A program made the translations under genes and the position numbers. From the NCBI GenBank assembly GCA_012719395.1, contig JAAYAL010000016.1, forward strand, positions 3,166 to 67,165: DNA of 64,000 nt, in the 5' to 3' direction. Under the pieces are notes generated by a model. That model had not been told where the DNA came from, did no database searches, and was given only the letters and a program-made list of their open reading frames with translations. How positions within the stretch are numbered: position 1 is the first letter of the stretch; each line of letters starts with the position of its first letter. Source of the stretch: Gaiellales bacterium. GTDB taxonomy: Bacteria; Actinomycetota; Thermoleophilia; RBG-16-64-13. This document shows, in pieces, positions 45,209 to 63,063 of this stretch.

Positions 45209-45793
45209 TCACACCGCGGCGGTGCGGGCGATGACCTGCTTGCAGATGGTCTTCAAGGTCTCGAACACACCCATCCCTGTGAGAGCCGAGGACTCCAACA
45301 CCGGAGCATTGGTGTGGTTGAGAAGGTCGGAGAGGTCTTGGGGGGAGAATATCTCAGGAAGATCCCTCTTGTTCAGTTGCAGCACGGTGGCCAAGCGGTT
45401 GAGCTCGTCCCCCTGTGACCTGATGTTGTCCCACAGATTGAGGTAGCTCTCCACGTTCTCGTCCAGACGGCAGATCTGGCTGTCCACCACGAACACCACG
45501 CCGTCGACCCCCTGCAGCACCAACCGCCGCGAGGCGTTGTAGTGCGACTGCCCGGGAACGGTGTAGAGGTGGAACCTGGTCTTCATGCCTTTGACCGACC
45601 CCAGGGACAGTGGGAGGAAGTCGAAGTAGAGGGTGCGTTCCTCCTCGGTGGCGATGCTCACCAGCTTGCCGCGGGTGTTGGGGTTGACCTTCTTGTGAAT
45701 GTACTGGATATTGGTGGTCTTCCCACACAGTCCACAGCCGTAGTAGACGATCTTGTAGTTGATCTCCCGGGCGGCGAAATTGATCAAAGGCAT
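45209..45793 (-). CDS. mglA: MglA small Ras-like GTPase (Myxococcus/Thermus-type)
   Basis: INF..REIN.KIVYYG.GLCGKTTN, ERTLYFDFLPL, FHLYTVPGQ, GVDGVVFVVDSQ, NKRDL. Confidence 0.95.
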   Translation of the reverse strand: MPLINFAAREINYKIVYYGCGLCGKTTNIQYIHKKVNPNTRGKLVSIATEEERTLYFDFLPLSLGSVKGMKTRFHLYTVPGQSHYNASRRLVLQGVDGVVFVVDSQICRLDENVESYLNLWDNIRSQGDELNRLATVLQLNKRDLPEIFSPQDLSDLLNHTNAPVLESSALTGMGVFETLKTICKQVIARTAAV

Positions 45794-45798
45794 AGCAC

Positions 45799-46251
45799 TT
45801 AGTCCACCCCTCCGAAGAGATCGTCCACTGCTTCTGAGGCTTCCACGGTGTACTGCTTGTCAACTACAGCGAGGTCGATGTCCTCCTCCGCCGCGCGGAA
45901 CAGCGGCCCCAAAGCCTCAATGGCCCGAGCCGTGTAAAGCCTCACCTTCCCCACCTGAGTATCGCGACCGAAAGCCACCACCAGCAACACTCTATCCGTC
46001 ACCTGCGCCACGTGCAGGTTGGAGTTCCGTCCTTCGTGGAAGAGCAGCGTGAACTCCCGCTCATTGAGAACGGCCGCCAGTTGTTGAGTGGCGGCAAAGG
46101 AACTGGCTGCCAGCGAAGCCAGCGACAACATGTCCGATTGGGCGTCCGCCGGCGAACAGGTGATGGGCTGACCGCTGGTGGAGACGATGGAGATGAAGCG
46201 AACCCCCGATGATGCATGGAGATCATTGAGGATCTGATCCACCAACCTCAT
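45799..46251 (-). CDS. mglB: MglB roadblock/LC7 GTPase-activating protein
   Basis: SLASLAA, EF...FHEG, VLLVVAF...T.VG.VRL, acidic C-terminal DDLF helix; immediately upstream of mglA; ATG at 46251. Confidence 0.9.
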   Translation of the reverse strand: MRLVDQILNDLHASSGVRFISIVSTSGQPITCSPADAQSDMLSLASLAASSFAATQQLAAVLNEREFTLLFHEGRNSNLHVAQVTDRVLLVVAFGRDTQVGKVRLYTARAIEALGPLFRAAEEDIDLAVVDKQYTVEASEAVDDLFGGVD

Positions 46252-46326
46252 GCGTCTGCTGCTTATGACGAGGCCCCTGCGGAGCGCCAAAGCGACTACC
46301 TTCCCCCGGTGGTTCCCTTGTCCGAG

Positions 46327-46335
46327 AGTATAACA
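46327..46335 (-). promoter_or_regulatory. Putative extended -10 promoter for mglBA
   Basis: Minus strand TG-T-TATACT. Confidence 0.5.
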
Positions 46336-46421
46336 ACACTGCAGGTCAAGCTGACCCACAGTCGCGCTTCCGGTCCCGGGAATGCCCAAGACAGGGCTTC
46401 GGCAGAGCGCCGGGTGGCCTG

Positions 46422-46463: not shown

Positions 46464-46850
46464 GTGAACCCCAAGGACTTCAGGTTCCACAAGGAGCATG
46501 ACTGGGTCCGTGTGGAGGGTGATATCGCCGCTTTCGGCGTCACCGATTACGCGCAGAAGACACTGGGTGACATTGTATATGTGGAATTGCCGGAAGTGGG
46601 CACGGAAGTGGCGGCAAATGATTCCTATGCTGAAGTCGAGTCGGTGAAAGCGGTTTCAGACGTCATCAGCCCGCTGAGTGGAATTGTCGTTGAGATCAAC
46701 GAAGAGGCAGTTGATGCCCCGGAGATCATCAACAAGAGCCCTTATGATGAGGGTTGGCTGGTGAGGGTACGCTATTCGAACCCTGCAGAACTAGATGACC
46801 TTATGACGTATGACGAGTATGAGCAGATGGTGCGTGAGCTGGAGACCTGA
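46464..46850 (+). CDS. gcvH: Glycine cleavage system H protein (lipoyl carrier)
   Basis: HKEHDWV, GVTDYAQ..LGDIVYVELP, VESVKAVSD (lipoyl Lys), IN..PY..GWL. Confidence 0.96.
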   Translation: MNPKDFRFHKEHDWVRVEGDIAAFGVTDYAQKTLGDIVYVELPEVGTEVAANDSYAEVESVKAVSDVISPLSGIVVEINEEAVDAPEIINKSPYDEGWLVRVRYSNPAELDDLMTYDEYEQMVRELET

Positions 46851-47140
46851 TGGATGCTGACGACTCATTCCAGGTTCTGATCGGGATTCAGTCTTACACG
46901 GACGACGAGCTGAAGTCTTTGGCTGCGCAGCTGGAACTTGAGGAGAAGGATATCTCCCGCCGACGGAGGATCCTCCACGGTAAGCTGGATATCCTGCGGG
47001 CCGAGATGGTTCGTAGGCTGCGTGACAAGCGCGGCGCGGGGGGGACGTTGGTGGGAGAGGATGACATCGCTCGCCTGTCGGAGATACTGAGCACGCGCTC
47101 GGGAAAGTGGCAGCCACCCAGCCCGCCCGGGGAGGACTGA
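46850..47140 (+). CDS. rsiG: RsiG-like single-motif c-di-GMP-binding anti-sigma factor
   Basis: DELKSL..QLELEEKDISRRRRILHGKLDILRAE: E32-x3-S36-x2-R39-x3-H43-x3-D47 matches the RsiG E-x3-S-x2-R-x3-Q-x3-D signature with Q to H; 96 aa, one copy. Confidence 0.75.
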   Translation: MDADDSFQVLIGIQSYTDDELKSLAAQLELEEKDISRRRRILHGKLDILRAEMVRRLRDKRGAGGTLVGEDDIARLSEILSTRSGKWQPPSPPGED

Positions 47141-48007: not shown

Positions 48008-48786
48008 CCAGGTTGGAAGGAAGCCGTGAGCAGTCCTCAGGTGGGTCCGGCGGTTCTTCGGCCGTGCCGTCTGGTGACGGCCTGCTGACCATCGGCCAGG
48101 TGGTCCATGCGCTTGAAGCTGAGTTTCCAGACCTAAGCATAAGCAAGATCCGCTACTTGGAGGAGCGGGCATTGCTGGCTCCACAGCGTACTCCCGGCGG
48201 CTACCGCAAGTACTCACAGCAAGACGTGCGCCGGTTGCGCGTGGTTCTATCGCTGCAGCGCGACGAGTTCCTTCCCCTGGAGATCATTCGCGAGCGCCTG
48301 CAGCGGGGACTCGATGAGGGCGTCGGGACCCGGCTTGCCGCGGCTTCGCTCCACGTGGAAAGCGCCGCCGTGCTCAAGCGTGAAGAGCGCCTGGTCGCCT
48401 GGGAAGAGGCATTGGAGATCAGCGGCGTGAGCGACAGCTTCATGCGACAGTTGGTTGACTACCGCTTGGTGGACCGTTATGCGGATGGCCTGGGGGGGTA
48501 CCGGCTCTCAGAGTCGGACGTAGAGGTCGCCCGCATCTGCAGCGGCTTGGCTCGTTTTGGCGTCGAAGCGCGTAATCTCCGTTTGATGCGCTCAGCCGTG
48601 GAGAGGGAAGTGTCCGTTATTGAGCATGTCACCTCTCCCGCACTGCGGTCTGGGCACCACGAGCGCCGGGAGGAGGGGGAACGCCAAGTCGTCGATCTCG
48701 GCGCCCTGCTCAGCGCCCTGTACCAGTTGCTGCTCTACCGAGATATGAGTGGCCTGATCAAGACCGGTCGTGGGACTCGGCAATAG
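48004..48786 (+). CDS. MerR family transcriptional regulator (FtsR/Rv1828-like)
   Basis: LTIGQV...L..EFPDLSISKIRYLE, PQRTPGGYRKYS, LQRDEFLPL..IRE; follows the FHA gene as in the actinobacterial cluster. Confidence 0.88.
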   Translation: MTRLEGSREQSSGGSGGSSAVPSGDGLLTIGQVVHALEAEFPDLSISKIRYLEERALLAPQRTPGGYRKYSQQDVRRLRVVLSLQRDEFLPLEIIRERLQRGLDEGVGTRLAAASLHVESAAVLKREERLVAWEEALEISGVSDSFMRQLVDYRLVDRYADGLGGYRLSESDVEVARICSGLARFGVEARNLRLMRSAVEREVSVIEHVTSPALRSGHHERREEGERQVVDLGALLSALYQLLLYRDMSGLIKTGRGTRQ

Positions 48787-48861
48787 CCGCCTCACCTCTA
48801 TGTCGCACCGTTGACCGGCGCGAAACGGCGAAAGAGCAGGCGTGGGTGAGACTCGATCGTA

Positions 48862-48901
48862 AGAAGCAATGAGGCCCCGCTCCTTGAGGAGCGGGGCCTC
48901 A
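48862..48901 (-). terminator. Strong intrinsic terminator at the convergence point
   Basis: Perfect 14-bp inverted repeat TGAGGCCCCGCTCC-TTGA-GGAGCGGGGCCTCA (48870-48901); minus-strand tail TTGCTTCTT. Confidence 0.8.
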
Positions 48902-49054
48902 CGTCATCTGTGACGTCAACGAACCTCCGAGAGCGCCACCGGGTGGCGTCCATCGTCGGTTAACCGGCAGCTAAAGGCGTTTGCCACCCCCGGTCCAGAG
49001 TTCGCCGCGTCTACTCGGCAATGTATCTATGTGGACCACCTCCTTTCAGACGCT
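48862..49054 (-). ncRNA. Candidate ~190-nt structured sRNA (6S-like core) or small-peptide mRNA
   Basis: Bounded by a TTGTAT-N17-TAAAGT promoter and the terminator; internal GGGTGGC/GCCACCC helix; perfect SD near the 5' end; no ORF of 60 aa or more on this strand. Confidence 0.5.
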
Positions 49055-49060
49055 GGCTAC

Positions 49061-49089
49061 ACTTTAGCGCCGCCCGCAGGAGGATACAA
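49061..49089 (-). promoter_or_regulatory. Sigma70-type promoter of the candidate sRNA
   Basis: -35 TTGTAT (49089-49084), 17-nt spacer, -10 TAAAGT (49066-49061). Confidence 0.6.
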
Positions 49090-49220
49090 GTGGCGCCGGG
49101 GAGGGGAGCGACCTTTCCGCGACGCGAAAGGCGCGGTCTTGAGTCAGCTTTACATAATGTTGATTATCGCGCATAGCGCACGCGCGGGGGGGAGGATCGG
49201 TTTGGTCTCAGGCTGCCAGA

Positions 49221-50093
49221 TCAGAAGGCCTTGCGGCTGAGCAGCGCCCGCAACCGGCCAAGAGCTTTGGTCTGCTCGCGGGAGATGGTCCGTTGACTCA
49301 CGCCCATTTCCTGCGCCACTTCGCGCTGCGACAACTCCTTGAAGAAAAGCAGGTAAACCAGGCGTTTTTGCATCTCGGAGAGCTTGGCCAGGGCTTGGTA
49401 CAGGGAGATGCGCTCTTCAATGGGCAGCGTGAAGCTCTCGTAGCGCAGCGCCCGCACACGGCTGGCATCGGGTTGGCCGACTCCATCGCCGTCTTGTTCT
49501 GATGTCTCGCCTAGGAACTGGAGATCCAGTTGCGCGTAGACACGAAGAACCTCGAGCAGGCCCTCCTCGGTGACGTTGACCTCAGCGGCCAGTTCCTGCA
49601 CAGAAGGCAATCGTTGCTGGCGCTCGAAGAAACGCGCCTGGGCGCTCTGGATGTCGTGATACAGGGTCCGGGCCCAGCGCGGTTGCCGAAGCAGGAGGTT
49701 GTCGCGCAGATGATGGCGCACCTCCCCATCAATGATCGCCACTGTATAGGTGGCAAAACTAAGACCGCGATCCCGGTCGAAGCGCTGCGCTGCTTTGAGC
49801 AGCCCTAGACGGGCCACCTGCAGTAGGTCCTCTTCTGGTTCCTTGGCATGCGTGAAGCGCCGCAGCACGTGGTAGAGCAGCCCGGTGTTGTTGTCCAGAA
49901 GGGCATCCAGGCAACGGGTGCATGCGGTGTCCTGATAGCAGCTGACCAAGTCGAGGTTGGTGGTGTCCGCGAGATTGTCGTTACGACAGCGCAGGGCTAC
50001 CGGCCTCCCCGTAGGCCGGGGAGCGACCGGCTTGTCGGCGAGATCAAGCAGCGCGGGACTGCGCTTCCCCAGTGCGGTAGCGTACAGGGTCAT
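49221..50093 (-). CDS. Alternative sigma factor, SigB/SigF/SigG-like (divergent)
   Basis: EDLLQVARLGLLKAAQRFDRDRG.SFATY...IDGEVRHHLRD region 2; region 4 LSQREVAQEMGVSQRTISR; start codon uncertain. Confidence 0.88.
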   Translation of the reverse strand: MTLYATALGKRSPALLDLADKPVAPRPTGRPVALRCRNDNLADTTNLDLVSCYQDTACTRCLDALLDNNTGLLYHVLRRFTHAKEPEEDLLQVARLGLLKAAQRFDRDRGLSFATYTVAIIDGEVRHHLRDNLLLRQPRWARTLYHDIQSAQARFFERQQRLPSVQELAAEVNVTEEGLLEVLRVYAQLDLQFLGETSEQDGDGVGQPDASRVRALRYESFTLPIEERISLYQALAKLSEMQKRLVYLLFFKELSQREVAQEMGVSQRTISREQTKALGRLRALLSRKAF

Positions 50094-50100
50094 GTGAGCT

Positions 50101-51321
50101 TCACTTCACCAGATCCATCATGCTGAACATGGGTAGGTACATGGAGATGACTATCACTCCGACCATCCCCCCCACGAAAATCATCATCACCGGCTCCAGA
50201 ATGGAGGTCAGCTGCTTGATGACCGCGTCCACTTCATCCTCGTAGAAATCGGCGATCTTGTGCAACATGTTGTCCAAGGCACCTGTCTCCTCACCGATGG
50301 CAATCATGTGTGTCACCATGGGCGGGAACACCTTTGCCTCCTCAAGCGGGCGCGCGATGGACTCGCCGCCACGGATCTTGGCTTTTGTCTGCTCCATGGC
50401 CCGCTCGATCACCACGTTGCCGGCCGTTTTGCCTGTGATGTCCAGGGATTGGAGGATGGGGACTCCCGAGCTGGCCAATGTGGCCAACGTGCGACTGAAG
50501 CGCGCCACGGCCAGCTTCTGCACGATCTCGCCTATGCGCATGGGTATGTGGAGCTTGAAGCGATCCCACGCGGCCGCGCCCTGTGGCGTGCGCTTGAGGT
50601 AGCGGAGGCCCAGCACGAGACCCACGACGCAGGGAATGATGACGAACCACCAGCCCTTCAAGAAATCGCTGATGCCGACCATGGCCCGCGTCAAGCCCGG
50701 CAACTCGCCACCCAGTTGGTCAAACATGTCCGCGAAGATGGGGATGATGAAAAGGATCATGCCGATGAGGACGAGGATAGAGAACACGCCTATCAGAGTG
50801 GGGTAGGCCATGGCCGATTTCACTGTGCGCTGCAGGCTGTCCTGCTTCTCGAGCTGCGTAGCCAGACGGTCGAGGGTGACATCCAGCACGCCACCCGTCT
50901 CCCCCGCCCTCACCATGGAGACGTAGAGCCGGTCGAACGCAGCCGGGTGCTTCTCCATAGCATCTGAGATGGGCAGGCCGGCTTCGACGTCGGCTTTGAC
51001 CAGGGAGATGATGTGCTTGAAACGCGCGTTCTGCGTCTGAGACTCCAGGACATACAACGCGCGCAAGATGGCGAGGCCGGCGCCGATCATGGTTGCAAAC
51101 TGCCGGCTGAACACGACCTTGTCCCGAAGCTTGATGCGACTCATGCTCTGCATCTTCTCGTCCAGGCCGGCGAAGAGACTGGTTCGTTTCTCGTCCAACG
51201 CCAGAACGGTCAGCCCCCTGCGCCTCAGCTCCGCCGCAGCCGCCATCTTGGAAGCGCCGTCGATTATGCCCTTCACCGGACTGCCCTGCGGAGGCCGGGC
51301 TGTGTACTCATAGGTTGCCAT
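50101..51321 (-). CDS. pilC: Type IV pilus platform protein PilC
   Basis: FSRQFATMIGAGL, VRAGETGGVLD, SAMAYP, IIPIFADMF, FSRTLATL.SSGVPIL, MIAIGEETG.L, MYLPMF. Confidence 0.96.
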   Translation of the reverse strand: MATYEYTARPPQGSPVKGIIDGASKMAAAAELRRRGLTVLALDEKRTSLFAGLDEKMQSMSRIKLRDKVVFSRQFATMIGAGLAILRALYVLESQTQNARFKHIISLVKADVEAGLPISDAMEKHPAAFDRLYVSMVRAGETGGVLDVTLDRLATQLEKQDSLQRTVKSAMAYPTLIGVFSILVLIGMILFIIPIFADMFDQLGGELPGLTRAMVGISDFLKGWWFVIIPCVVGLVLGLRYLKRTPQGAAAWDRFKLHIPMRIGEIVQKLAVARFSRTLATLASSGVPILQSLDITGKTAGNVVIERAMEQTKAKIRGGESIARPLEEAKVFPPMVTHMIAIGEETGALDNMLHKIADFYEDEVDAVIKQLTSILEPVMMIFVGGMVGVIVISMYLPMFSMMDLVK

Positions 51322-51355: not shown

Positions 51356-52420
51356 CTAGGCGGCACCGGACATGATCAGCCTGCCGAGATCTTCAGGATT
51401 GGAGGAACGGGTCTCCGCCAGTTCCCGGCTGATGAGCTTGCGCCGCACCAAGTCGGCAAGGGCGAAGTCCATGGTCTGCATGCCATATTTGCTGCCCGTC
51501 TGCATCACCGTGTATATCTGGTGCGTCTTGCCCTCGCGGACGAGATTGCGCACGGCCGGCGTGGGAACCAGCACCTCACAGGCCGCCACCCGTCCGTGGC
51601 CGTCGCGCCGGGGCAGCAACTGCTGTGTGACGATGCCCTGGATGGTCGAGGCGATCTGCACACGGATCTGCTCTTGCTGGTGAGGCGGGAAGACGTCGAT
51701 CATGCGGTCGATGGACTGCGGGCAGTCCTGTGTGTGAAGGGTAGCGAACACCAGATGGCCGGTCTCGGCAGCGGTGAGAGCCGTCTGGATGGTCTCCAGA
51801 TCTCGCATCTCACCTACCAGTATGACATCCGGGTCTTGGCGCAGGACCGACTTCAGGGCGCGCCCGAACCCCTTGGTATCCGTGCCCACTTCGCGCTGGT
51901 TGACCAAGCATTTCTTGTGCGCGTGGAGGAACTCGATGGGGTCCTCGATGGTCATGATGTGCTCGCTGCGATTGGAGTTGATCTCATCGATGATCGCGGC
52001 GAGCGTGGTGGACTTGCCGGACCCGGTGGGACCGGTGACCAGCACAAAACCGCGCGGCTTCTGCGAGAAGCTGTGGACGACCTTTGGCAGCCCCAGACTG
52101 TCGATAGTCAGGATCTTGAGGGGCACCAAGCGGAACGCGGCTCCCAGGCTGTTGCGCTGGAAGTACACGTTGACGCGGAAGCGGGCACGGCCCGGCATGG
52201 AATAGGAGAAATCGATCTCCCAGTCGGTCTCCAGCTTCTGCCTCTGATCCTGGGTCAGGATGCTGTAGATGAGATCCCGCGTCTCCGGAGGTGTCAGCGG
52301 AGGGTAGGGCAGGTGAGTGAGGTGGCCGTGCACCCTCACCGTGGGGGGTATGCCCACGGACAGGTGCAGATCTGATGCGTCGAGATCCACCACCTGGACA
52401 AGAATGTCAATGAGATCCAT
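51356..52420 (-). CDS. pilT: Type IV pilus retraction ATPase PilT
   Basis: ASDLHL, RFRVN, GPTGSGKST, EDPIE, LRQDPDVILVGEMRD, AETGHLV..TLHT, AVRNLVRE (AIRNLIRE motif); ATG 52420 after GGAGGTGG. Confidence 0.96.
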   Translation of the reverse strand: MDLIDILVQVVDLDASDLHLSVGIPPTVRVHGHLTHLPYPPLTPPETRDLIYSILTQDQRQKLETDWEIDFSYSMPGRARFRVNVYFQRNSLGAAFRLVPLKILTIDSLGLPKVVHSFSQKPRGFVLVTGPTGSGKSTTLAAIIDEINSNRSEHIMTIEDPIEFLHAHKKCLVNQREVGTDTKGFGRALKSVLRQDPDVILVGEMRDLETIQTALTAAETGHLVFATLHTQDCPQSIDRMIDVFPPHQQEQIRVQIASTIQGIVTQQLLPRRDGHGRVAACEVLVPTPAVRNLVREGKTHQIYTVMQTGSKYGMQTMDFALADLVRRKLISRELAETRSSNPEDLGRLIMSGAA

Positions 52421-52450
52421 CTGCCACCTCCGTAGCACCGAGAGATCGGT

Positions 52451-54175
52451 CTAGACGATGACCCGCGCGATCTCCTCGACGCTTGTCAGTCCCTCAAGCA
52501 CCTTGTCAATTCCGTCTTCCCGAAGCCCGAGCATGCCTTCGGCCACGGCGACCCTGCCGATTTCATCGGCACTCTTGCGCTCAACCGTGAGTCTCTCGAT
52601 AGCCTCAGAGACCGGCATCACCTCGTAGATCCCTAGGCGTCCTCGATACCCGGTGTGGTTGCAGCGCCGGCACCCCACAGCGCGGTAGAGAGTGACTTCT
52701 TCCCAGCCGTCGACAGCCTCCTGGGGGAAGTCACTCCGTTGCAGCATTTCCCTGGTGGGCCTGTAGGGCTCCTTGCAGTGATCGCATAGGCGCCGGGCCA
52801 AGCGCTGGGCCAGCACGCAGTCCACGGCGGATGCGGTCAAGAAGGGCTCTATGCCCATCTCCGTGAGCCTGCTGAGCGCGCCGGGCGCGTCATTGGTGTG
52901 GAGCGTGCTGAGCACCAAGTGCCCTGTCAGAGCCGATTCGACGGCGATCTGCGCCGTTTCCCTGTCCCGGATCTCCCCGATCATGATGATGTCCGGATCG
53001 CAGCGTAGGATGGAGCGAAGGCCGGCAGCAAAGGTCAGCCCCGCCCTGGGATTCACGTGCACCTGGTTGATTCGGTTCAGGCGGTACTCAACCGGGTCCT
53101 CCACGGTGATGATGTTCTTTTCCGGTGAGTTGAGGATGTTGAGCGTGGCATAGAGCGTGGTGGATTTGCCGGATCCGGTTGGACCGGTCACCAGGATGGC
53201 CCCGTACGGCTTGGTGAATGACTTGCGGTAGCGGGCCAGCGCCTTCTCAGAGAAGCCGAGGTCCTCCAAACGAAGCATGACGTTGGAGCGATCCAGAAGG
53301 CGGATGACGATCTTCTCGCCGTAGACCGTTGGCAGCGAGGCCACGCGCATATCGATGGGCTTCCCTCCCACCGTGAGCCCCATGCGCCCGTCCTGCGGCA
53401 CGCGGCGCTCGGCGATATCCAGGTCCGCCATGATCTTCACGCGGGACAGCACCCCGGACTGCATGCGGTGAGGGATGGACATGGCCTCGTGGAGGACACC
53501 GTCGTGGCGGAAGCGGATCAGGAGCTCCTTGGCCTGCGGCTCGAAATGGATGTCCGAGGCTCCATCCTCCACCGCCTGCGCGATAACCCCGTTGACCAGC
53601 TTGACGATGGGGGCCTCATCAACCTGTTCCAGAATGTCGTGTATCTCATCAGGGGTCACACGGCTGTCGGCAGGCACGTCCCCATCGATGCTGGTGCCAA
53701 CCTTGTCTTCCAGTTTGCTCAGGTTGGCAATGCTCTCGAAGATGTCCTCTTCGGGGGCGATGGCGGGCTCGATGTCATAACCAGTGAGAATACGAAGATC
53801 ATCGATGGCCAGGATGTTGGCCGGATCCACCATGGCCACCAGAATGGTGTGATCATCGACGAATGACACGGGAAGCGCCGCGTAGCGGCGGGCATCTCTC
53901 TCCGTGATCAACCCGCCGGCGGAGGCTTCCAGCCGGGCATCCTGCAGATCGACGAAGCGAACGCCCAACTGGTGTCCGCGGGCCTTGGCCAACTGAGAAG
54001 GTGTGACCCACTCCTTGGCCACCACGATGTCCCCCATGCGCCGGTGGGAAACCCTCTGCTCCTCAAGTGCCTCGCTCAACTGCTCCGGAGTGATGAGACC
54101 CATCTCAATCAGGATCTCACCCATGCGCAGCTTGCTTGACCTTCGTTGAGGGATGTGTTCGGTGGGCAGCTGCAT
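52451..54175 (-). CDS. pilB: Type IV pilus extension ATPase PilB with N-terminal MshEN domain
   Basis: Tandem RMGEIL../RMGDIV.. repeats; ASDIHFEP, DIAERRVPQDGR, GPTGSGKST, LRCDPDIIMIGEIRD, C.HC...C..C zinc motif, YRGRLGIYE; ATG 54175. Confidence 0.96.
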   Translation of the reverse strand: MQLPTEHIPQRRSSKLRMGEILIEMGLITPEQLSEALEEQRVSHRRMGDIVVAKEWVTPSQLAKARGHQLGVRFVDLQDARLEASAGGLITERDARRYAALPVSFVDDHTILVAMVDPANILAIDDLRILTGYDIEPAIAPEEDIFESIANLSKLEDKVGTSIDGDVPADSRVTPDEIHDILEQVDEAPIVKLVNGVIAQAVEDGASDIHFEPQAKELLIRFRHDGVLHEAMSIPHRMQSGVLSRVKIMADLDIAERRVPQDGRMGLTVGGKPIDMRVASLPTVYGEKIVIRLLDRSNVMLRLEDLGFSEKALARYRKSFTKPYGAILVTGPTGSGKSTTLYATLNILNSPEKNIITVEDPVEYRLNRINQVHVNPRAGLTFAAGLRSILRCDPDIIMIGEIRDRETAQIAVESALTGHLVLSTLHTNDAPGALSRLTEMGIEPFLTASAVDCVLAQRLARRLCDHCKEPYRPTREMLQRSDFPQEAVDGWEEVTLYRAVGCRRCNHTGYRGRLGIYEVMPVSEAIERLTVERKSADEIGRVAVAEGMLGLREDGIDKVLEGLTSVEEIARVIV

Positions 54176-54176
54176 G

Positions 54177-55025
54177 CTATTCCGCGGACGGAGCCGCGGC
54201 GCGCATGGCTTCGCCCGGCGCTTTGGCCCCGGTCCAAAGCTCAAATGACAAAACTGCTTGCTGTACCAGCATCTCCCAACCGTCCATGACCACAGCGCCA
54301 CTGTCGCGGGCAGCAGTCACGAGGGTATGGCCCCCGTAACGAAGGTCCATGACAAATTGGCCTTCGTGGAAGATATCGTCAGCGAGCCCCAAATCCTTGA
54401 CGTTTGGATCACATATTCCGGCCGACGTGGCATTGATGATGAGACCAGCGGTCGAGGCCGCCTCGCGCAGGCCGTCCGCCGTGACCACCCGGCAGTTGCG
54501 CAGGCCCCAGTTGCGGACGGCCTGGGCCAGTTCCTCTGCTCGCTGCGGAGTACGGTTCCACAGCAAAAGGCCGGCAACGCCCCAGTCGGCAAGTGCCGCA
54601 GCTACCGCCCGGGCGGCGCCCCCGGCACCCAGCAGCAGCACGCCGGTTTCGCTCGGGCTGCCATGCCATTGACTCCGCAAGACGCCCAGAAAACCGGCGC
54701 TGTCGGTGTTGTGGCCCACCAAGTGCCCATCGCGGTTCACCACCGTATTGACCGAGCCTATCCGGGCAGCCTGCGGTTCCACTGCGTCCAGCAGGGGGAT
54801 GATGGCCTGCTTGTGTGGAAGCGTGACGTTGGCCCCTAGGGCGTTCAGGGCACGCAGAGCGCCTACGGCCTCCGGCAGGTTGGACGGAGTCACATCGAAG
54901 GCCAGGTAGACGGCAGGCACACCGCAGACCCGGAGTGCAGCGTTCTGCATCGCAGGCGAGAGGGAGTGCGCCACGGGGTGTCCCAACAGCGCGATGAGCT
55001 TGGTGGCGGCGGTGATGCATGCCAT
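54177..55025 (-). CDS. aroE: Shikimate dehydrogenase
   Basis: LLGHPVAHSLSP.MQN, GANVTLPHK, SVNT, GHNTD..GF, GAGGAARA, INATS, G.EMLVQQA. Confidence 0.95.
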   Translation of the reverse strand: MACITAATKLIALLGHPVAHSLSPAMQNAALRVCGVPAVYLAFDVTPSNLPEAVGALRALNALGANVTLPHKQAIIPLLDAVEPQAARIGSVNTVVNRDGHLVGHNTDSAGFLGVLRSQWHGSPSETGVLLLGAGGAARAVAAALADWGVAGLLLWNRTPQRAEELAQAVRNWGLRNCRVVTADGLREAASTAGLIINATSAGICDPNVKDLGLADDIFHEGQFVMDLRYGGHTLVTAARDSGAVVMDGWEMLVQQAVLSFELWTGAKAPGEAMRAAAPSAE

Positions 55026-55146
55026 GACTCTCTCCTTGGCCTCGAACCACGAGGTGCAGGCTACCACGAGACGCGCAGCCGTACCGTACGCCCAAGGGTG
55101 GAATCAGGCGGCGCGTGCGCGAGGCGGCGGAAACCGGCGGCGGAAG

Positions 55147-56199
55147 TCACTGCTGCGGAGCGTCCTCGCTGGCCTTGAGGAACTCGTCGTATGAAGCTGT
55201 GAAGAAATGGTGCCCATCGTCCTTGGTGAGGACGTAGTAGAGGTAATCAACGTCTGCAGGCTGGAGAGCGGCTTCCAGGCTGGCCAGTCCCGGGCTGGCG
55301 ATGGGCCCCGGGGGCAATCCCTTGTACCTACGGGTGTTATATGGAGAATCGACCTCGAGGTCACTCTGCGTGAGGGCACCTGTCCACTTTGTGAGAGCGA
55401 AGCGCACCGTGGCGTCTATGTCCAGGCGCATGTCCAGCTTCAGCCGATTGTAGACAACGGCAGCCACCAGGGCTCGCTCCTCCGGCACAGCCGTCTCCTT
55501 TTCGATCATCGACGCGATGGTCACGATCTCATACGGGGAGACACCCAAGGTGGCGGCTCTGTCCCACGGCAGGGAATCGGTGTACGCCGAGAAGGCTTCC
55601 AGCTGGGCGGCAATGAGCGCTTCCGCCGGCCGTTGCGGCGCGACGTAGTAGGTGCTGGGGAAGAGCAGGCCTTCCAAGTCCGCGACCTCAACCGTCTCAC
55701 CGCCCACCCGGGGGACCGTGAAGTCTTGCGGCCTACGTGCCAGCCTCTCGTATTCCTCGCCGCCCACGGTGCTCTTCTCGGTGAGTCGCTCACTCACTTG
55801 GTCAATGGAAAGGCCCTCCGGTATGGTGAGTTTCGCCTCTTCGCTCTGCTCTCCCTCCGCCAGTTTTCGGACCACTTCCCCCATGTCCTCACCCGGAGTG
55901 AGCTCGTAGATCCCCGGCTTCAGTTCCGCCTCAACGCCTTGACGGCGAACCTCAGCCAGGAAGGCCTTGCCCGAGACCACGACGCCCTGTTCCTGCAGCA
56001 GCTCCCCGATCTGCACCGCCGAAAGCCCGGAAGAGATGGCAATCTGCCGGGGGTTGCGATCGGCCGGCGCCGTGCTGGTGGTCGACTCCGGGCCTCCCGT
56101 TCCAAGCAGCGACACCACGGTCACCACTACGGCGGCCAGAAGGACCACGAAGCCCGCCACCGCGAGCAATCTGGGCCGGTTCCTCACGACGTGCCCCAT
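55147..56199 (-). CDS. mltG: Endolytic transglycosylase MltG (YceG family)
   Basis: N-terminal TM, LKPG.Y, TIPEGL, LEGLLFPSTY, IASMIEKE, NRL, SPYNT..Y.GLPPGPIA.PG, YLYYV, H.FT..Y.EF. Confidence 0.94.
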   Translation of the reverse strand: MGHVVRNRPRLLAVAGFVVLLAAVVVTVVSLLGTGGPESTTSTAPADRNPRQIAISSGLSAVQIGELLQEQGVVVSGKAFLAEVRRQGVEAELKPGIYELTPGEDMGEVVRKLAEGEQSEEAKLTIPEGLSIDQVSERLTEKSTVGGEEYERLARRPQDFTVPRVGGETVEVADLEGLLFPSTYYVAPQRPAEALIAAQLEAFSAYTDSLPWDRAATLGVSPYEIVTIASMIEKETAVPEERALVAAVVYNRLKLDMRLDIDATVRFALTKWTGALTQSDLEVDSPYNTRRYKGLPPGPIASPGLASLEAALQPADVDYLYYVLTKDDGHHFFTASYDEFLKASEDAPQQ

Positions 56200-56582
56200 T
56201 TCGCATCGAGGTAGTTCTGCAGCATGAAGGCCGCGGCTACGGCGTCGGCATGACCCGTCCCCGGCTTGAGTTCCCTGGCCAGTTTGGTGGTGAAGCGCTC
56301 GTCCCAGGTCACAATGGGGATGGTTGCAGTATTCCGCAGCAGGCCCACCACTTCCCGGCTCCTGGCGGCCTGGCGGCTGTCTCCTCCGCGCAAGGGCCGT
56401 GGGATACCCACCACCACGGCGGTGGCCTCGTGCTCCGCGGCGATGCGCAGCACCTCGCTCCCCAGCGCCTGACGGTCAGTCTCCTCGATGACGGTCAGCG
56501 GCCTGCAGGCAATACCCACCACGTCAGAGACGGCCACGCCGGTACGGCGATCGCCAACGTCAATACCCAGGATTCTGCCCAC
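56184..56582 (-). CDS. ruvX: Holliday junction resolvase-like protein RuvX/YqgF
   Basis: ILGIDVGDRRTGVAVSD, VVGIP, WDERFTT, DAVAAAFMLQ.YLD. Confidence 0.93.
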   Translation of the reverse strand: MGRILGIDVGDRRTGVAVSDVVGIACRPLTVIEETDRQALGSEVLRIAAEHEATAVVVGIPRPLRGGDSRQAARSREVVGLLRNTATIPIVTWDERFTTKLARELKPGTGHADAVAAAFMLQNYLDAKWGTS

Positions 56583-59201
56583 CTAGCCCGCGAACGCCCG
56601 CGTCACCGCCGTGCGCACTTCCTCCAGCGCCTGGCCCAACCTGGCAGAGTCCCCTCCACCGGCACGGCCTAGCGTTGGGCTGCCTCCACCCCGTGCCCCC
56701 AGGGTCTGCGCAACCTGTTTCACCAGATTGCCGGCGTGGACGCCATCCAGGCCTTTGCTGCAGGAGATGGCCAGCAGTGCACCACCGTCGGTCTTTGCGC
56801 CCAGTGCCACCACTGCCGGCGCAACCTTATCGCGGACTTGATCCACCAACGTCAGCAATTGCTCCATATCACGAGCGGGAGCTTCCGCCGCCACCAGGCG
56901 CGCCTTCCCCAGATCCGCGGCGGTGGCCGCGAGGTCGTTGGCAGCATCCTTTGCCTTGCCCGACCTCAGATCCTTCGTCTCCTCGATGAGGGCCGCGAGT
57001 TGCTCCTGCAGCTTGCGGATACCCGTGAGCAGCTGGTCTTCCTGCGACAGGTTGAGCTGCAGCGCCGCATCACTCACCATGCCGTCTCGCTGCCGGTAGT
57101 AGTCGACCGCCTTGCGCCCGGTGACCGCCTCAATGCGGCGGACATTGGCGCCCACGCTACTCTCGCTCAGGATCTTGAACAACCCTATCTCGCTGGTGCG
57201 ACCCACGTGCGTGCCGCCACAGAGCTCGCGGCTGAAGTTGTCCACCTCCACCACGCGTACGAAGTCACCGTACTTCTCGTCGAACAGCGCCATGGCGCCC
57301 AGGTCACGCGCGTGCTCCAGGGTGGTGGTGAAGGTGCGCACGGCGTGGTCCTCCACGATCTTCCTGTTGACGATCTCCTCCACGGCACGCAACCTGTCCG
57401 AGCCCACCGGCTCGTGGTAGGAGAAGTCGAATCTCATCTTGTCGCTGCGCACGGCCGAGCCGGCCTGGTGTACGTCCTTGCCCAGCGTTTGCTGCAACGC
57501 GTACTGAAGCAGATGCGTCCCGGTGTGGTTGGCGGCCACGGAATGGCGATGGGTAGTGGAGATGGCGGCCTTCACCCGGGTGTCCTCCAGCAGTCTGCCC
57601 TCCACCGGGCGGGCCACGATCACCTGGACTTCGCCGTGCTGCTGCACGTCCACCACCTCGGCGCGGCCGGTGTCGGACTCGATCCAGCCCACGTCGGCGA
57701 TCTGCCCACCCTTCTCCGCGTAGAAGGGGCTCTCCCGCAGGGCCACCAGCAACTTGTCGCCCAAGGGCCGCACCTTCTCGATGACGGTGTAGAGCTCATC
57801 GCGCTCGTAGCCCTGGAACTCGGTGGGCTGCTCCACTTCCCGGGCGAAGTCGATGAGAGCCTGCTGGGAGTCGCTCACTCCCCGCTGAGAAACCCGGGCC
57901 CTTTCGCGCTGCTCCTCCATGGCCGCCTCAAAACCGGCCAGGTCGAGCTCCAATCCCTGTTCGGCCAGCAACTCACGGGTGACCTCCACCGGAAAACCGT
58001 AGGTGTCATGCAGCACGAAGGCCACGCGGCCGGCCAGCACCGTGTTCTCCGCCTCCCGCGCTCTCTCCATCTCCTGCTCCAACAACACCAGTCCCTGGTC
58101 CAGCGTGCGGTTGAAGCGTTGCTCCTCCGTCTCCACGATGCGCAGCACTGCGTCCCTGCGCTGCACCAGTTCCGGGTAGGCATCACCCAACATGTCAATG
58201 ACGCGCTGTGCGAACCGCGCCAGGAACGGAGGCTCTATCTGGGCAGTGCGGCCCATGCGGGCGGCACGCCGAATCACGCGCCGCAGCACGTAGCTGCGGC
58301 CCTCATTGCCGGGCAGCACTCCGTCGGCGATGAGGAAGGTCATGGCACGGGCATGATCCGCCAGCACGCGTAGGGCAACATCTGTCCGCGTCTCTTGACC
58401 GAGCTTCCTTCCCGAGATCTCCTCGCCAAGGCTGATGAGCGGATAGAACACATCCGTGTGGAAGACGGAGGGCACACCCTGGCTGATGGCGGCGATGCGC
58501 TCCAGGCCCATGCCGGTATCGATGTTGTTGAACGGCAACGGGGCGAGGCCGCCGTTGGCGTCCATGTTGTATTCCGTGAAGACCAAGTTCCAGTACTCCA
58601 GGTAGCGATCACACTCGCAACCCGGGCGGCAATCCGGACTGCCACAACCGAAGCCGGGACCTTGGTCGTAGTAGATCTCTGAGCAGGGGCCGCAGGGACC
58701 GGAGGCGCCGGTGGGCCCCCAGAAGTTGTCGCTGCGGGGCAGTCCCACCATGCGCTCCCGTGGGATCCCCACGGCCGCCCAAGCCTCCACGGCCTGGGTA
58801 TCCGGTGGCACTTGGTCGTCCCCCATGAAGTAGGAGATCCAGAGCCGATCCGCCGGGTAGCCCAGATGCTCGGTGGAGAACTGGAAGCCGAAGCGGATGG
58901 CCTCTGCTTTGAAGTAGTCCCCCACGGAGAAGTTGCCCAACATCTCGAAGAAAGTGCAGTGGCGGGAGGTCAGCCCCACGCGGTCGATGTCTGTGGTGCG
59001 GAAGCACTTCTGCACGCTGGTCAACCGTCGCGAGGGGGGCTCGGCGGTACCGAGGAAGTACGGCTTGAACTGCTGCATGCCCGCCGTGGTCAGCAGCACC
59101 GAGGGATCGCGGTGGGGAACGAGCGAAGAACTCGGGACCAGCAGATGACCCTGAGTCACGAAATAGTCAAGGTACAGCTTGCGTAGCTCGGATGTCTTCA
59201 A
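56583..59201 (-). CDS. alaS: Alanine--tRNA ligase
   Basis: LLTTAGMQQFK, QKCFR, HCTFFEMLGNFS.GDY, GPCGPCSE, IDTGMGLER, editing HTGTHLL and ELCGGTH; TTG start. Confidence 0.98.
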   Translation of the reverse strand: MKTSELRKLYLDYFVTQGHLLVPSSSLVPHRDPSVLLTTAGMQQFKPYFLGTAEPPSRRLTSVQKCFRTTDIDRVGLTSRHCTFFEMLGNFSVGDYFKAEAIRFGFQFSTEHLGYPADRLWISYFMGDDQVPPDTQAVEAWAAVGIPRERMVGLPRSDNFWGPTGASGPCGPCSEIYYDQGPGFGCGSPDCRPGCECDRYLEYWNLVFTEYNMDANGGLAPLPFNNIDTGMGLERIAAISQGVPSVFHTDVFYPLISLGEEISGRKLGQETRTDVALRVLADHARAMTFLIADGVLPGNEGRSYVLRRVIRRAARMGRTAQIEPPFLARFAQRVIDMLGDAYPELVQRRDAVLRIVETEEQRFNRTLDQGLVLLEQEMERAREAENTVLAGRVAFVLHDTYGFPVEVTRELLAEQGLELDLAGFEAAMEEQRERARVSQRGVSDSQQALIDFAREVEQPTEFQGYERDELYTVIEKVRPLGDKLLVALRESPFYAEKGGQIADVGWIESDTGRAEVVDVQQHGEVQVIVARPVEGRLLEDTRVKAAISTTHRHSVAANHTGTHLLQYALQQTLGKDVHQAGSAVRSDKMRFDFSYHEPVGSDRLRAVEEIVNRKIVEDHAVRTFTTTLEHARDLGAMALFDEKYGDFVRVVEVDNFSRELCGGTHVGRTSEIGLFKILSESSVGANVRRIEAVTGRKAVDYYRQRDGMVSDAALQLNLSQEDQLLTGIRKLQEQLAALIEETKDLRSGKAKDAANDLAATAADLGKARLVAAEAPARDMEQLLTLVDQVRDKVAPAVVALGAKTDGGALLAISCSKGLDGVHAGNLVKQVAQTLGARGGGSPTLGRAGGGDSARLGQALEEVRTAVTRAFAG

Positions 59202-59228
59202 GGGGCAAAACCTCTCACCGTCGATGTC

Positions 59229-60053
59229 CTACAGCCGCGTGTCGTGTTCGCCTTCTCCCACTATCGTCTGCCTGAGAACGTCGACGGCCTTGCGTATCAG
59301 CCGCGAAACGTGCATCTGCGAGATGCCCACCCGAGCCGCTATCTGCGTCTGCGTCATGCCTTCGAAGAAACGCAGGTGCAGTATCAACCGCTCTCTCTCA
59401 TCCAGATGCTCCATCGCCGGCGCCAGGAAGCGCCTCTGCTCCACCAGTTCATAGGCACCCTCTTCGCCACCCAGGCAATCCGCAATCTCGAAAGCGTCCT
59501 CCTCCTCCGAGGTACCGCTCCCGTAGATCGAGAGGGAATTATAGGCCCTTCCGCTCTCCAGCGCCTCAAGGACTTCCTCTTCGCTCACGCCACACGCTTT
59601 GGCCATGTCCGCGATGGAGGGCGAACGATTGAGATCGACCGTCAACTGCTCCACTACTCGGTTCAGTCTGACGTTGAGGTCCTGCAGGGCCCGGGGGACT
59701 TTGACCGCCCAACCCTTGTCACGGAAGTAGCGCTTGATCTCGCCCATGATGGTTGGAGTGGCATACGTGGACAGCTCCACACCCCTATCGGGATCGAAGC
59801 GATCGATGGCTTTGATCAAACCGATGGACCCCACCTGTATGAGATCCTCCACCGGCTGGCCGCGAGAGGCAAAACGGCGCGCCAAACCGCGCACCAGTGG
59901 CAGATAGCGGGTGATCAGCTCTTCCCGGGCGCCCTGGTCGTGCTCTTGGCGTATGCGACGGAGAAGCACCTTCTCAGGCAGGTCCCGTGGGGGAGGCTCC
60001 AACGGGTCCACCATAGAACGCCCTGCGGCAGCAGCGTGCTTCGGTTCACCCAT
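59229..60053 (-). CDS. SigB/SigF-family stress sigma factor
   Basis: DLIQVGSIGLIKAIDRFDPDRGVELSTYATPTIMGEIKRYFRDKGWAVKVPR; MTQTQIAARVGISQMHVSRL; start 60053 (60056 or 60014 possible). Confidence 0.93.
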   Translation of the reverse strand: MGEPKHAAAAGRSMVDPLEPPPRDLPEKVLLRRIRQEHDQGAREELITRYLPLVRGLARRFASRGQPVEDLIQVGSIGLIKAIDRFDPDRGVELSTYATPTIMGEIKRYFRDKGWAVKVPRALQDLNVRLNRVVEQLTVDLNRSPSIADMAKACGVSEEEVLEALESGRAYNSLSIYGSGTSEEEDAFEIADCLGGEEGAYELVEQRRFLAPAMEHLDERERLILHLRFFEGMTQTQIAARVGISQMHVSRLIRKAVDVLRQTIVGEGEHDTRL

Positions 60054-60447
60054 CACAGCGGCACATCTTGGTGAGCCGGAGGGAGAAGCCCGCCGGCGTT
60101 TCGCGCTCCAGGCCACAGTCGTCTACCAGCCGCCGCAACACGGTGCCCCGATGCAGCAACGGCATGGAAGCCGTTGCCGGCCGAGAGCGACCTAGGATCT
60201 CGGCGCGCAGCCCAGCATCACTCAGCAGACCCAGATACACGTTGATCCGACCATCACCCATCTCAACTTCCATGGTGATCTGGTCTTCCTTGGCCTCCCT
60301 GCCCCTGAGCACGTGCTCCACCGCCAGCTGCAGGTCATCCATGGCCTCGAAGGTCATATCAGCCCTGGCTGCCACCCCGCCCAGCACCAAGCGCAACAGG
60401 GGAAGGTAGGCAGACGAGTCCGGGAGCGTCAGGCACACGCGATCCAA
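60046..60447 (-). CDS. RsbW-like anti-sigma factor with degenerate kinase motifs
   Basis: TTG start after GGAGG; LPDSSAYLPLLRLVLGGVAARADMTFEAMDDLQLAVE resembles the RsbW N-terminus; LVD..and LTK at the C-terminus; overlaps the sigma gene start. Confidence 0.75.
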   Translation of the reverse strand: MDRVCLTLPDSSAYLPLLRLVLGGVAARADMTFEAMDDLQLAVEHVLRGREAKEDQITMEVEMGDGRINVYLGLLSDAGLRAEILGRSRPATASMPLLHRGTVLRRLVDDCGLERETPAGFSLRLTKMCRCDG

Positions 60448-62885: not shown

Positions 62886-62907
62886 GACCTCACTCCTCAT
62901 ACGGAAA

Positions 62908-63059
62908 ATGCTCCACCTTGCCGTGTCTGGGTGATCTTGAACCTGCCTAAGCAGGTGGGTGGCTGCTCCTGGAGGGCACTGCTACCGCCCAGAGAAACAA
63001 GCCTCCCGATCATCGCGTGTTGGCTCAAGACTGAGCAGATCACGCACAAGGTCGAGCAC
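62908..63059 (-). ncRNA. ssrS: 6S RNA
   Basis: Terminal helices TGCTC/GAGCA, ACCTTG/CAAGGT, TGATCT/AGATCA; GGGAGGC(63007-63001)/GCCACCC(62963-62957); bubble hairpin ACCTGC-TTAG-GCAGGT then TCAA; CGGCA; directly downstream of aspS as in Firmicutes. Confidence 0.85.
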
Positions 63060-63063
63060 AACA

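Follow-up and report, generated by a model that had tools for sequence, protein, structure and literature searches.

A SigF-like sigma factor gene directly behind pilC in Thermoleophilia: a candidate dedicated pilin sigma factor

Introduction

To our knowledge, little has been learned of how type IV pili are regulated in monoderm bacteria and in basal actinobacterial lineages, where RsiG-WhiG of Rubrobacter is the sole described circuit. Here we analyse a group-3 sigma factor gene, sigma1, that lies directly behind the pilus motor genes pilB, pilT and pilC in a Gaiellales bacterium of the Thermoleophilia (genome G000, 2.43 Mb in 92 contigs). The gene is part of a 64-kb window (G000:C92:3166-67165), the whole stretch of DNA that was analysed, and positions are window coordinates unless a contig is named. 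An initial annotation of this DNA had proposed a divergent, pilus-coupled SigB/F-like sigma factor that could turn on pilin genes. In related genomes that carry sigma1, a two-block motif, TGTCTAG-N13-GGGnAnnT, precedes a riboswitch for c-di-GMP (cyclic diguanosine monophosphate) and the pilin gene pilA. These arrangements suggest, with a probability that we put at about two in three, that sigma1 is a dedicated pilin sigma factor within the motor operon, driving the pilA promoter.

Parts of this arrangement have counterparts in better known systems. FliA (sigma-28) is encoded within flagellar operons and drives late flagellin genes. The likeness lies in a sigma gene that rides the structural or motor operon of a machine and then activates the gene for its filament subunit, as sigma1 would. 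FliA differs in belonging to another sigma subfamily (sigma1 scores 88 bits with TIGR02479, cut-off 190) and in serving another organelle, and no FlgM-like export-coupled anti-sigma factor was identified for sigma1. In Clostridioides difficile, pilA1 has a class II c-di-GMP riboswitch that works as an ON switch, and no dedicated sigma factor is known there. Both cases place a c-di-GMP riboswitch in the major pilin leader of a monoderm bacterium, but the relatives studied here have class I riboswitches (or the GGC variant) that are apparently OFF switches behind the promoter of a putative dedicated sigma factor, and the genome of the window has lost its copy.

Among sigma factors the nearest precedent is the group-3 SigF of Synechocystis PCC 6803, which alone, directly and stringently transcribes pilA1 (PMC2532724, PMC2758279); the promoter has a TAGGC element at -32 and, at -12, (G)GGTAA (PMC2532724). 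SigF and sigma1 are both group-3 factors of the SigB/F lineage, tied (putatively, for sigma1) to a major pilin promoter, with what appears to be a very small regulon, and their half-sites are similar: TAGGC/(G)GGTAA in the cyanobacterium, TGTCTAGG (TCTAGG) and GGGTA/GGGCA here. On the other hand, sigma1 falls well below the cut-off of the cyanobacterial SigF model PRK07408 (141 vs 261 bits), the promoter spacer is apparently ~3 nucleotides (nt) shorter than the cyanobacterial one, and the link to c-di-GMP riboswitches is new relative to SigF. We know of no cyanobacterial sigF encoded inside a pil motor operon.

In Rubrobacter, type IV pili are controlled by a (RsiG)2-(c-di-GMP)2-WhiG switch in which RsiG-(c-di-GMP) sequesters WhiG, and single-motif RsiGs have been noted in Thermoleophilia (PMC8325347). 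The present locus shares with this circuit a basal actinobacterial lineage, a pil output and a c-di-GMP input; here too, WhiG and a single-motif RsiG are encoded, and pilA is preceded by TAAA-N15-GCCGATAA promoters. The Rubrobacter circuit consists of a sigma-28 type factor with a protein anti-sigma factor, whereas sigma1 is SigF-like, has another promoter and has no known anti-sigma factor, and c-di-GMP would act through an RNA riboswitch in the sigma1 system rather than through the RsiG protein. Neither a second sigma factor nor a riboswitch is mentioned in the published accounts of WhiG (PMC8325347; 2026 WhiG survey).

Results

sigma1 is the last gene of the pilB-pilT-pilC array

The pilus motor genes, sigma1 and the hairpin beyond it are arranged as follows.

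52451..54175 (alternative upstream end 54301), minus strand: pilB, extension ATPase (Pfam, NCBIfam); further ATG at 54124
51356..52438, minus strand: pilT, retraction ATPase (TIGR01420 496 bits, cut-off 319)
50101..51321, minus strand: pilC, type IV pilus platform protein, T2SSF (Pfam, NCBIfam)
50094..50100, minus strand: pilC-sigma1 junction, 7 nt (AGCTCAC), with no room for a promoter or terminator
49221..50093, minus strand: sigma1, group-3 sigma factor of 290 residues, Sigma70_r2/r4 matches, conserved core from about residue 45
48869..48902, minus strand: G+C-rich hairpin of 15 base pairs, ~320 nt past the sigma1 stop

The sigma1 reading frame begins 7 nt past the pilC stop, as the initial annotation had described: only AGCTCAC separates the stop codon TGA (50101-50103) from the sigma1 ATG. 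The assignment of sigma1 as the last gene of the pilB-pilT-pilC array also held, since the 3' side of sigma1 consists of a 434-nt spacer with the hairpin and then a convergent MerR gene. The hairpin is probably a terminator common to sigma1 and the MerR gene. This layout is consistent with co-transcription of sigma1 with pilB-pilT-pilC and, probably, with translational coupling.

No riboswitch or other accepted family was found in an Rfam search of 48750-49260, and a search 3' of sigma1 with a permissive E-value returned only a CC2171-like match (29.7 bits, gathering score 75). This sub-threshold match to a Caulobacter small RNA family lies at 48872-49055 on the minus strand and ends at the strong hairpin; we disregarded it as probably meaningless. 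A sigma-70 promoter scan of 48-56.5 kb gave 0 matches, which we regard as uninformative. A cascade in which WhiG switches on the motor operon and thereby sigma1 was unsupported, as no WhiG-type promoter was found 5' of pilB in the window or in 53 relatives.

sigma1 belongs to a distinct pilus-linked clade

A second sigma factor gene in the window served as a reference for the placement of sigma1:

59229..60116, minus strand: sigma2, canonical SigB/F type (TIGR02980 289.9 bits, above cut-off)

The architecture of sigma1 is that of group 3, with regions 2, 3 and 4 (Pfam Sigma70_r2 53 bits and r4 46 bits; r3 borderline, 23.7 bits against a threshold of 25.3) and without region 1.2 or the non-conserved insert. 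It scored below the cut-off of every subfamily model considered: 162.9 bits with the SigB/SigF/SigG model TIGR02980 (cut-off 234.35), 141.5 bits with the cyanobacterial SigF model (NF005644 / PRK07408, cut-off 261), and 88.3 and 72.1 bits with the FliA/WhiG models TIGR02479 (cut-off 189.6) and NF004935 (cut-off 343). Nine other clade members reached 160-211 bits with TIGR02980, and the PRK07408 scores of clade members ranged from 141 to 206 bits, all sub-cut-off. Of the 11 clade members tested, 9 (sigma1 included) nevertheless had PRK07408 as their second-best NCBIfam model, and in the remaining two it ranked third or sixth. Among solved structures Geobacillus sigma-F is the closest (1L0O, 148 bits, against 87 bits for WhiG), so a GGG-type -10 element is expected. 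We also considered and rejected an extracytoplasmic function sigma factor, as the corresponding Pfam match reflects region-4 overlap.

In the phylogeny, the Thermoleophilia sigma1 proteins formed a clade with a Shimodaira-Hasegawa-like approximate likelihood ratio test (SH-aLRT) support of 100. The window sigma1 lies inside it (SH-aLRT 99 for its subclade), and its terminal branch is long (0.69; median 0.12). All pilus-linked sigma factors split from sigma2 and sigma-F with an SH-aLRT of 94. Model scores and tree thus bear out a divergent SigB/F-like factor, and place sigma1 in a distinct pilus-linked clade outside the SigB/F/G, cyanobacterial SigF and FliA/WhiG cut-offs.

Region 2.4, which had been called atypical, does contain the quoted sequence TYTVAIIDGEVRHHLRDNLLLRQPRW, but it proved to be a conserved signature of the clade rather than a peculiarity of this gene. 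Fifteen orthologues share DGE[VIL]RH[YH]LRD..L.RQPRW at positions where ordinary members have GEI.R.LRD...VKVPR; sigma1 has DGEVRHHLRD..LRQPRW and keeps every clade-invariant residue of regions 2 and 4. We therefore consider region 2.4 a clade hallmark, which may be linked to promoter specificity.

The ratio of nonsynonymous to synonymous substitution rates (dN/dS) of the sigma1 core was 0.08-0.12 against three relatives of the same lineage, and for comparison that of pilC was 0.04-0.16. The gene is thus maintained, and we rejected a pseudogene or mis-called open reading frame on the same ground (dN/dS about 0.1). Only the first 44 residues are weakly conserved (dN/dS 0.4-0.9). Despite this variable N-terminus, the start codon 7 nt past pilC is retained in three lineages.

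The pilC-sigma1 adjacency recurs across relatives

Orthologues of sigma1 were found in 16 of 40 relatives, in three families (E 1e-53 to 1e-90; next-best paralogues ≤1e-35), with pilT-pilC directly 5' of sigma1 in all 16. A scan of GTDB species genomes found 478 relatives, and 80 loci were kept; among these, every Thermoleophilia locus with enough flank had the order pilB-pilT-pilC-sigma. sigma1 was 3' of pilC in 55/55 public loci with both genes, with a median of 28 nt between the pilC stop and the conserved core of the sigma factor, and in the largest group of public loci the sigma start codon lay 13-22 nt past pilC. This layout is shared by the three metagenome relatives that are nearest (67-81 % identity), and in two of them the 7-nt junction is identical. 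Seen in all orthologue-bearing loci that were examined, the adjacency goes far beyond what chance would produce, and it is not unique to this genome. In relatives of the same family (f1) that lack sigma1, pilC is followed by the convergent apt-merR-FHA-rsiG-gcvH genes, so that the neighbourhood differs by sigma1 alone.

Pilin genes are also linked to sigma1. Families f3 and f6 have one or more of them 350-1200 nt 3' of it, as do most of the public Thermoleophilia loci, and in the family of the window the pilin cluster lies at a conserved distance of 65-80 kb on the same contig. More distant homologues (32-45 % identity) stand beside pilB, pilT, pilC or pilins in Armatimonadota, Vulcanimicrobiota, Sysuimicrobiota, an Atribacterota-labelled metagenome-assembled genome (MAG) and unclassified MAGs.

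A two-block motif precedes pilA in sigma1-bearing genomes

In a comparison of the 300-nt regions before the main pilin genes of 33 relatives, sigma1-bearing genomes shared the motif TGTCTAG-N13-GGGnAnnT 5' of pilA. Refined on 54 distinct sites, it reads TGTCTAG(G)AA - N - (G/A)GGCAnnAT or GGGTAnnAT, with a fixed 13-nt spacing between TGTCTAG and GGG. The motif ends 8-20 nt 5' of a c-di-GMP-I riboswitch, behind which come a T-run hairpin and pilA. It preceded pilA in 14 of 17 sigma1-bearing relatives and in none of 15 sigma1-lacking ones (Fisher p = 1.5e-6, uncorrected for kinship). Together with the pilC-sigma synteny and the pilins downstream, this distribution supports the earlier proposal that a pilus-coupled sigma factor may drive pilins.

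In the sigma1-lacking genomes, pilA has only a sigma-28/WhiG-type promoter, CTAAAGT-N15-GCCGATA. The sigma1-bearing genomes usually also have a WhiG-type promoter (TAAA-N15-GCCGATAA), situated just 5' of the sigma1-type motif, so that pilA has two tandem promoters. The pattern TGTCTAN-N13-RGGNANNNT, scanned against 41 genomes, had 23 matches, against 19 for a reversed control; 10 of the 23 were pilA promoters of sigma1-bearing genomes (plus the genome G021), and the remainder look like chance. As the scan found essentially pilA promoters, the regulon seems to consist of little more than the pilA transcription unit. The same scan showed no copy of the motif that would point to autoregulation. 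The contig G021:C2 (3.9 kb, locus L035/L087) carries a sigma1-type promoter, a riboswitch and pilA, yet no sigma1 gene was detected in its bin, which may reflect contamination or an assembly gap. In Armatimonadota-type loci, the related sequence (G/T)(A/T)CTAG-N13/14-GGG(A/T)AGA stands before riboswitches in 6 of 27 upstream regions, where ~0.2 would be expected.

c-di-GMP riboswitches stand in pilA leaders and before sigma genes

An Rfam-confirmed c-di-GMP-I riboswitch was present in the pilA loci of 16 relatives. Other c-di-GMP riboswitches in the same genomes had sigma-28 or sigma-70 type promoters and never TGTCTAG-N13-GGGnAnnT. Some of the aptamers score best with the GGC variant model, and their ligand may therefore differ. 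In leaders of five genomes (G005, G018, G039, G003 and G011), the aptamer sequence GGCAAACCAC has its complement in the 5' arm of the terminator, and minimum-free-energy folds showed either aptamer plus terminator or the anti-terminator pairing. Tentatively, the folding suggests that the ligand-bound leader terminates transcription and would thus be an OFF switch. Its sign would be the same as that of RsiG-(c-di-GMP) sequestering WhiG in Rubrobacter (PMC8325347).

In at least nine Armatimonadota-type loci the c-di-GMP-I riboswitch lies directly before the sigma gene itself. Among Armatimonadota and unclassified MAG loci, L150, L158, L159, L162, L164, L167, L172 and L173 have a c-di-GMP-I or GGC-variant riboswitch ~150-300 nt 5' of the sigma gene, with Rfam scores above the gathering score; L167 has an additional copy 5' of pilT.

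The pilA1 promoter region has lost its riboswitch in the genome of the window

The pilin gene of this genome, pilA1 (G000:C92:120682-121158, minus strand), belongs to a pilin cluster ~68 kb from sigma1, at about 121.16 kb of the contig. Its WhiG-type promoter is intact (TAAAGT..., with 15 nt after TAAA and then GCCGATGA). About 90 nt 3' of it lies TTGACTCA-N13-GGGAAGACT, a degenerate homologous copy of the sigma1-type promoter. This element aligns base for base with those of the closest genera (TTGGCTAA-N13-GGGAATACT in G019 and TTGTCTAA-N13-GGGAATACT in G002) and differs from these nearest relatives at essentially one -35 position. The same alignment shows that most of the riboswitch has been deleted, and Rfam searches, permissive E-values included, found none at the pilA1 locus or 3' of sigma1. 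A whole-genome scan with a position weight matrix (PWM) of the clade motif gave nothing convincing as further regulon members. Most likely sigma1 still serves this second promoter (P2) of pilA1 without the RNA switch, which we hold with lower confidence than the corresponding statement for the family. The only c-di-GMP-I riboswitch detected in this genome (G000:C89:728-805, minus strand, locus L079, 64.8 bits) lies near a contig end and has no sigma1-type motif upstream.

An RsiG-WhiG circuit accompanies the locus

The initial annotation had stated that sigma1 has no adjacent anti-sigma gene, and this was confirmed; the nearest candidate lies 2.1 kb away on the opposite strand:

46850..47140, plus strand: RsiG-like single-motif c-di-GMP anti-sigma factor (PF22802 52.3 bits)

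No partner-switching anti-sigma kinase or anti-anti-sigma factor (RsbW/SpoIIAB, RsbV/SpoIIAA) was present among the neighbours of sigma1, which are pilC on one side and the spacer and MerR gene on the other. The RsiG-like gene belongs to the convergent operon gcvH-rsiG-x-FHA-merR beyond the spacer, and it is kept beside the pil motor operon in relatives with and without sigma1. Its c-di-GMP motif, E-x3-S-x2-R-x3-H-x3-D, has His in place of the published Gln. A bona fide WhiG is encoded elsewhere on the contig (NF004935 351 bits, cut-off 343). Judged by these features, the RsiG-like protein is the predicted partner of WhiG, and the second-messenger circuit appears to be present here.

Flanking genes and other features of the window

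Upstream of pilB, the motor genes are joined to a housekeeping array:

54177..60116, minus strand: sigma2-alaS-ruvX-mltG-aroE, co-directional, inter-gene gaps of -16 to 79 nt

The minus-strand order is aspS, 6S RNA, mnmA, DUF948, sigma2, alaS, ruvX, mltG, aroE, pilB, pilT, pilC and sigma1. Gaps of -16 to 79 nt extend throughout from sigma2 (60116) to sigma1 (49221), and the pilB ATG lies 1 nt past the aroE stop. Residues 59-196 of PilB, counted on 52451-54301, form an MshEN-type c-di-GMP-binding N-terminal domain (NF053729 67.7 bits, cut-off 38; PF05157 64.5 bits), and c-di-GMP may therefore act directly on the extension ATPase too. Near the pilus genes, an MglB-like Roadblock/LC7 protein (45799-46389, minus strand) adjoins a small Ras/Arf-like GTPase (45209-45793, minus strand), a polarity-switch pair. 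The 6S RNA (RF00013, 70.5 bits) is at 62906-63060 on the minus strand, between aspS and a 178-residue open reading frame without a family match.

Discussion

We propose that sigma1, made together with the pilus motor, would read the TGTCTAG-N13-GGGnAnnT promoter that leads into the c-di-GMP-I riboswitch and pilA. In the riboswitch-bearing relatives, pilin synthesis would then need both the sigma factor from the motor operon and permissive levels of the second messenger, as the folded leaders look like OFF switches in which ligand binding would favour termination. The WhiG promoter just upstream would form the other of two tandem pilA promoters, with WhiG held by c-di-GMP-armed RsiG. In the genome of the window, the riboswitch has been lost, and a degenerate copy of the putative sigma1-type promoter persists beside the intact WhiG-type one.

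Several observations weigh against this proposal. Every genome has a canonical SigB/F-type sigma2, a factor in principle able to read a GGGTA-type promoter. The association between motif and gene is imperfect: no clear motif was seen at the examined pilin of G031 and of G036, both of which have the sigma gene, and G021 has the motif with no sigma1 gene detected, in a bin that is 76 % complete with 5 % contamination. The Fisher p value overstates the association, because relatedness leaves possibly few independent events. Expression platforms are heterogeneous, and as the simple anti-terminator complement occurs in only 14 of 55 leaders, the OFF-switch reading draws on a subset. Finally, the clade PWM reached at most 17.8 in this genome (training median 29.9) and stayed below 11 at the pilA1 copy.

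The first of these points can be extended into an explanation in which the motif is read by sigma2 or another general stress sigma factor, the sigma1 regulon lies elsewhere, and the adjacency to pilC is an accident of gene order. Classical SigB/SigF promoters have the -10 element GGGTAT, which that of the motif resembles, and sigma2 passes the TIGR02980 cut-off (290 bits) and shares the co-directional array. However, sigma2-type genes lie ~9-10 kb from pilC with or without sigma1, yet the motif is found only where sigma1 is present; it also lies directly 3' of the sigma1 gene in most lineages, and a related motif accompanies sigma1 homologues in other phyla. We consider it unlikely that sigma2 is the reader. 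Quite improbable, in our view, is that the RsiG-like protein nearby has sigma1 as its partner, or as an additional one, and holds it inactive when loaded with c-di-GMP, so that sigma1 instead of WhiG would be the pilus sigma factor under c-di-GMP control. The short distance of 2.1 kb, the conserved convergent operon and the lack of another anti-sigma factor near sigma1 would fit such a pairing. Yet RsiG persists beside pilC in relatives without sigma1, the genome has its own WhiG, and the WhiG-type promoters, which stand before pilA in all relatives, fit the published Rubrobacter circuit (PMC8325347).

The weak match of pilA1 to the clade motif also allows that sigma1 has become a relic in this particular genome, its control of pilA lost and the protein drifting or re-purposed. 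The whole genome is without a good PWM match, the riboswitch was not found at pilA1 or 3' of sigma1, and the terminal branch of sigma1 is several times the median. Such decay nonetheless has little probability in our estimate, given the low dN/dS of the core against three relatives of the same lineage and the presence of all clade-invariant residues of regions 2 and 4. Moreover, the pilA1 promoter departs from its nearest relatives at essentially one position, and GACTAG-type -35 variants are known from the loci of other phyla here. A dedicated pilin sigma factor thus remains our preferred reading.

More tentatively, and as a view that we hold at somewhat less than even odds, sigma1 may represent an ancient, hitherto unrecognised pilin-sigma family, possibly sister to, or including, cyanobacterial SigF. 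Its members would occur in several phyla of the Terrabacteria (Thermoleophilia, Armatimonadota, Vulcanimicrobiota, Sysuimicrobiota and relatives) and be hard-wired both to c-di-GMP riboswitches and to type IV pilus genes. Such a family would use two interchangeable topologies: either the riboswitch stands first, then the sigma gene and then pil genes, or the sigma gene is in the motor operon and the promoter read by its product leads through the riboswitch to the pilin. In basal actinobacteria, the pilin sigma factor would then give pilA a second, RNA-based c-di-GMP input beside the protein-based RsiG-WhiG. A full-text literature search found no description of a pil-operon sigma factor in these phyla. 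What would be new here is a SigF-like pilin sigma factor whose gene lies within the motor operon and which is linked with c-di-GMP riboswitches; a pilin sigma factor as such has the cyanobacterial precedent.

If the proposal is true, an operon-borne second sigma factor with an apparently one-promoter regulon, combined with a riboswitch in the leader of its target, adds a layer to the regulation of pili. One sigma factor with one defined 29-nt promoter would offer a testable specificity pair and possibly an orthogonal expression part. The pilA promoter region would also be a natural case of protein and RNA sensors of c-di-GMP converging on one gene. The recurrence across phyla suggests a greater age and a wider distribution of dedicated pilin sigma factors than one would expect from the single case of the cyanobacteria.

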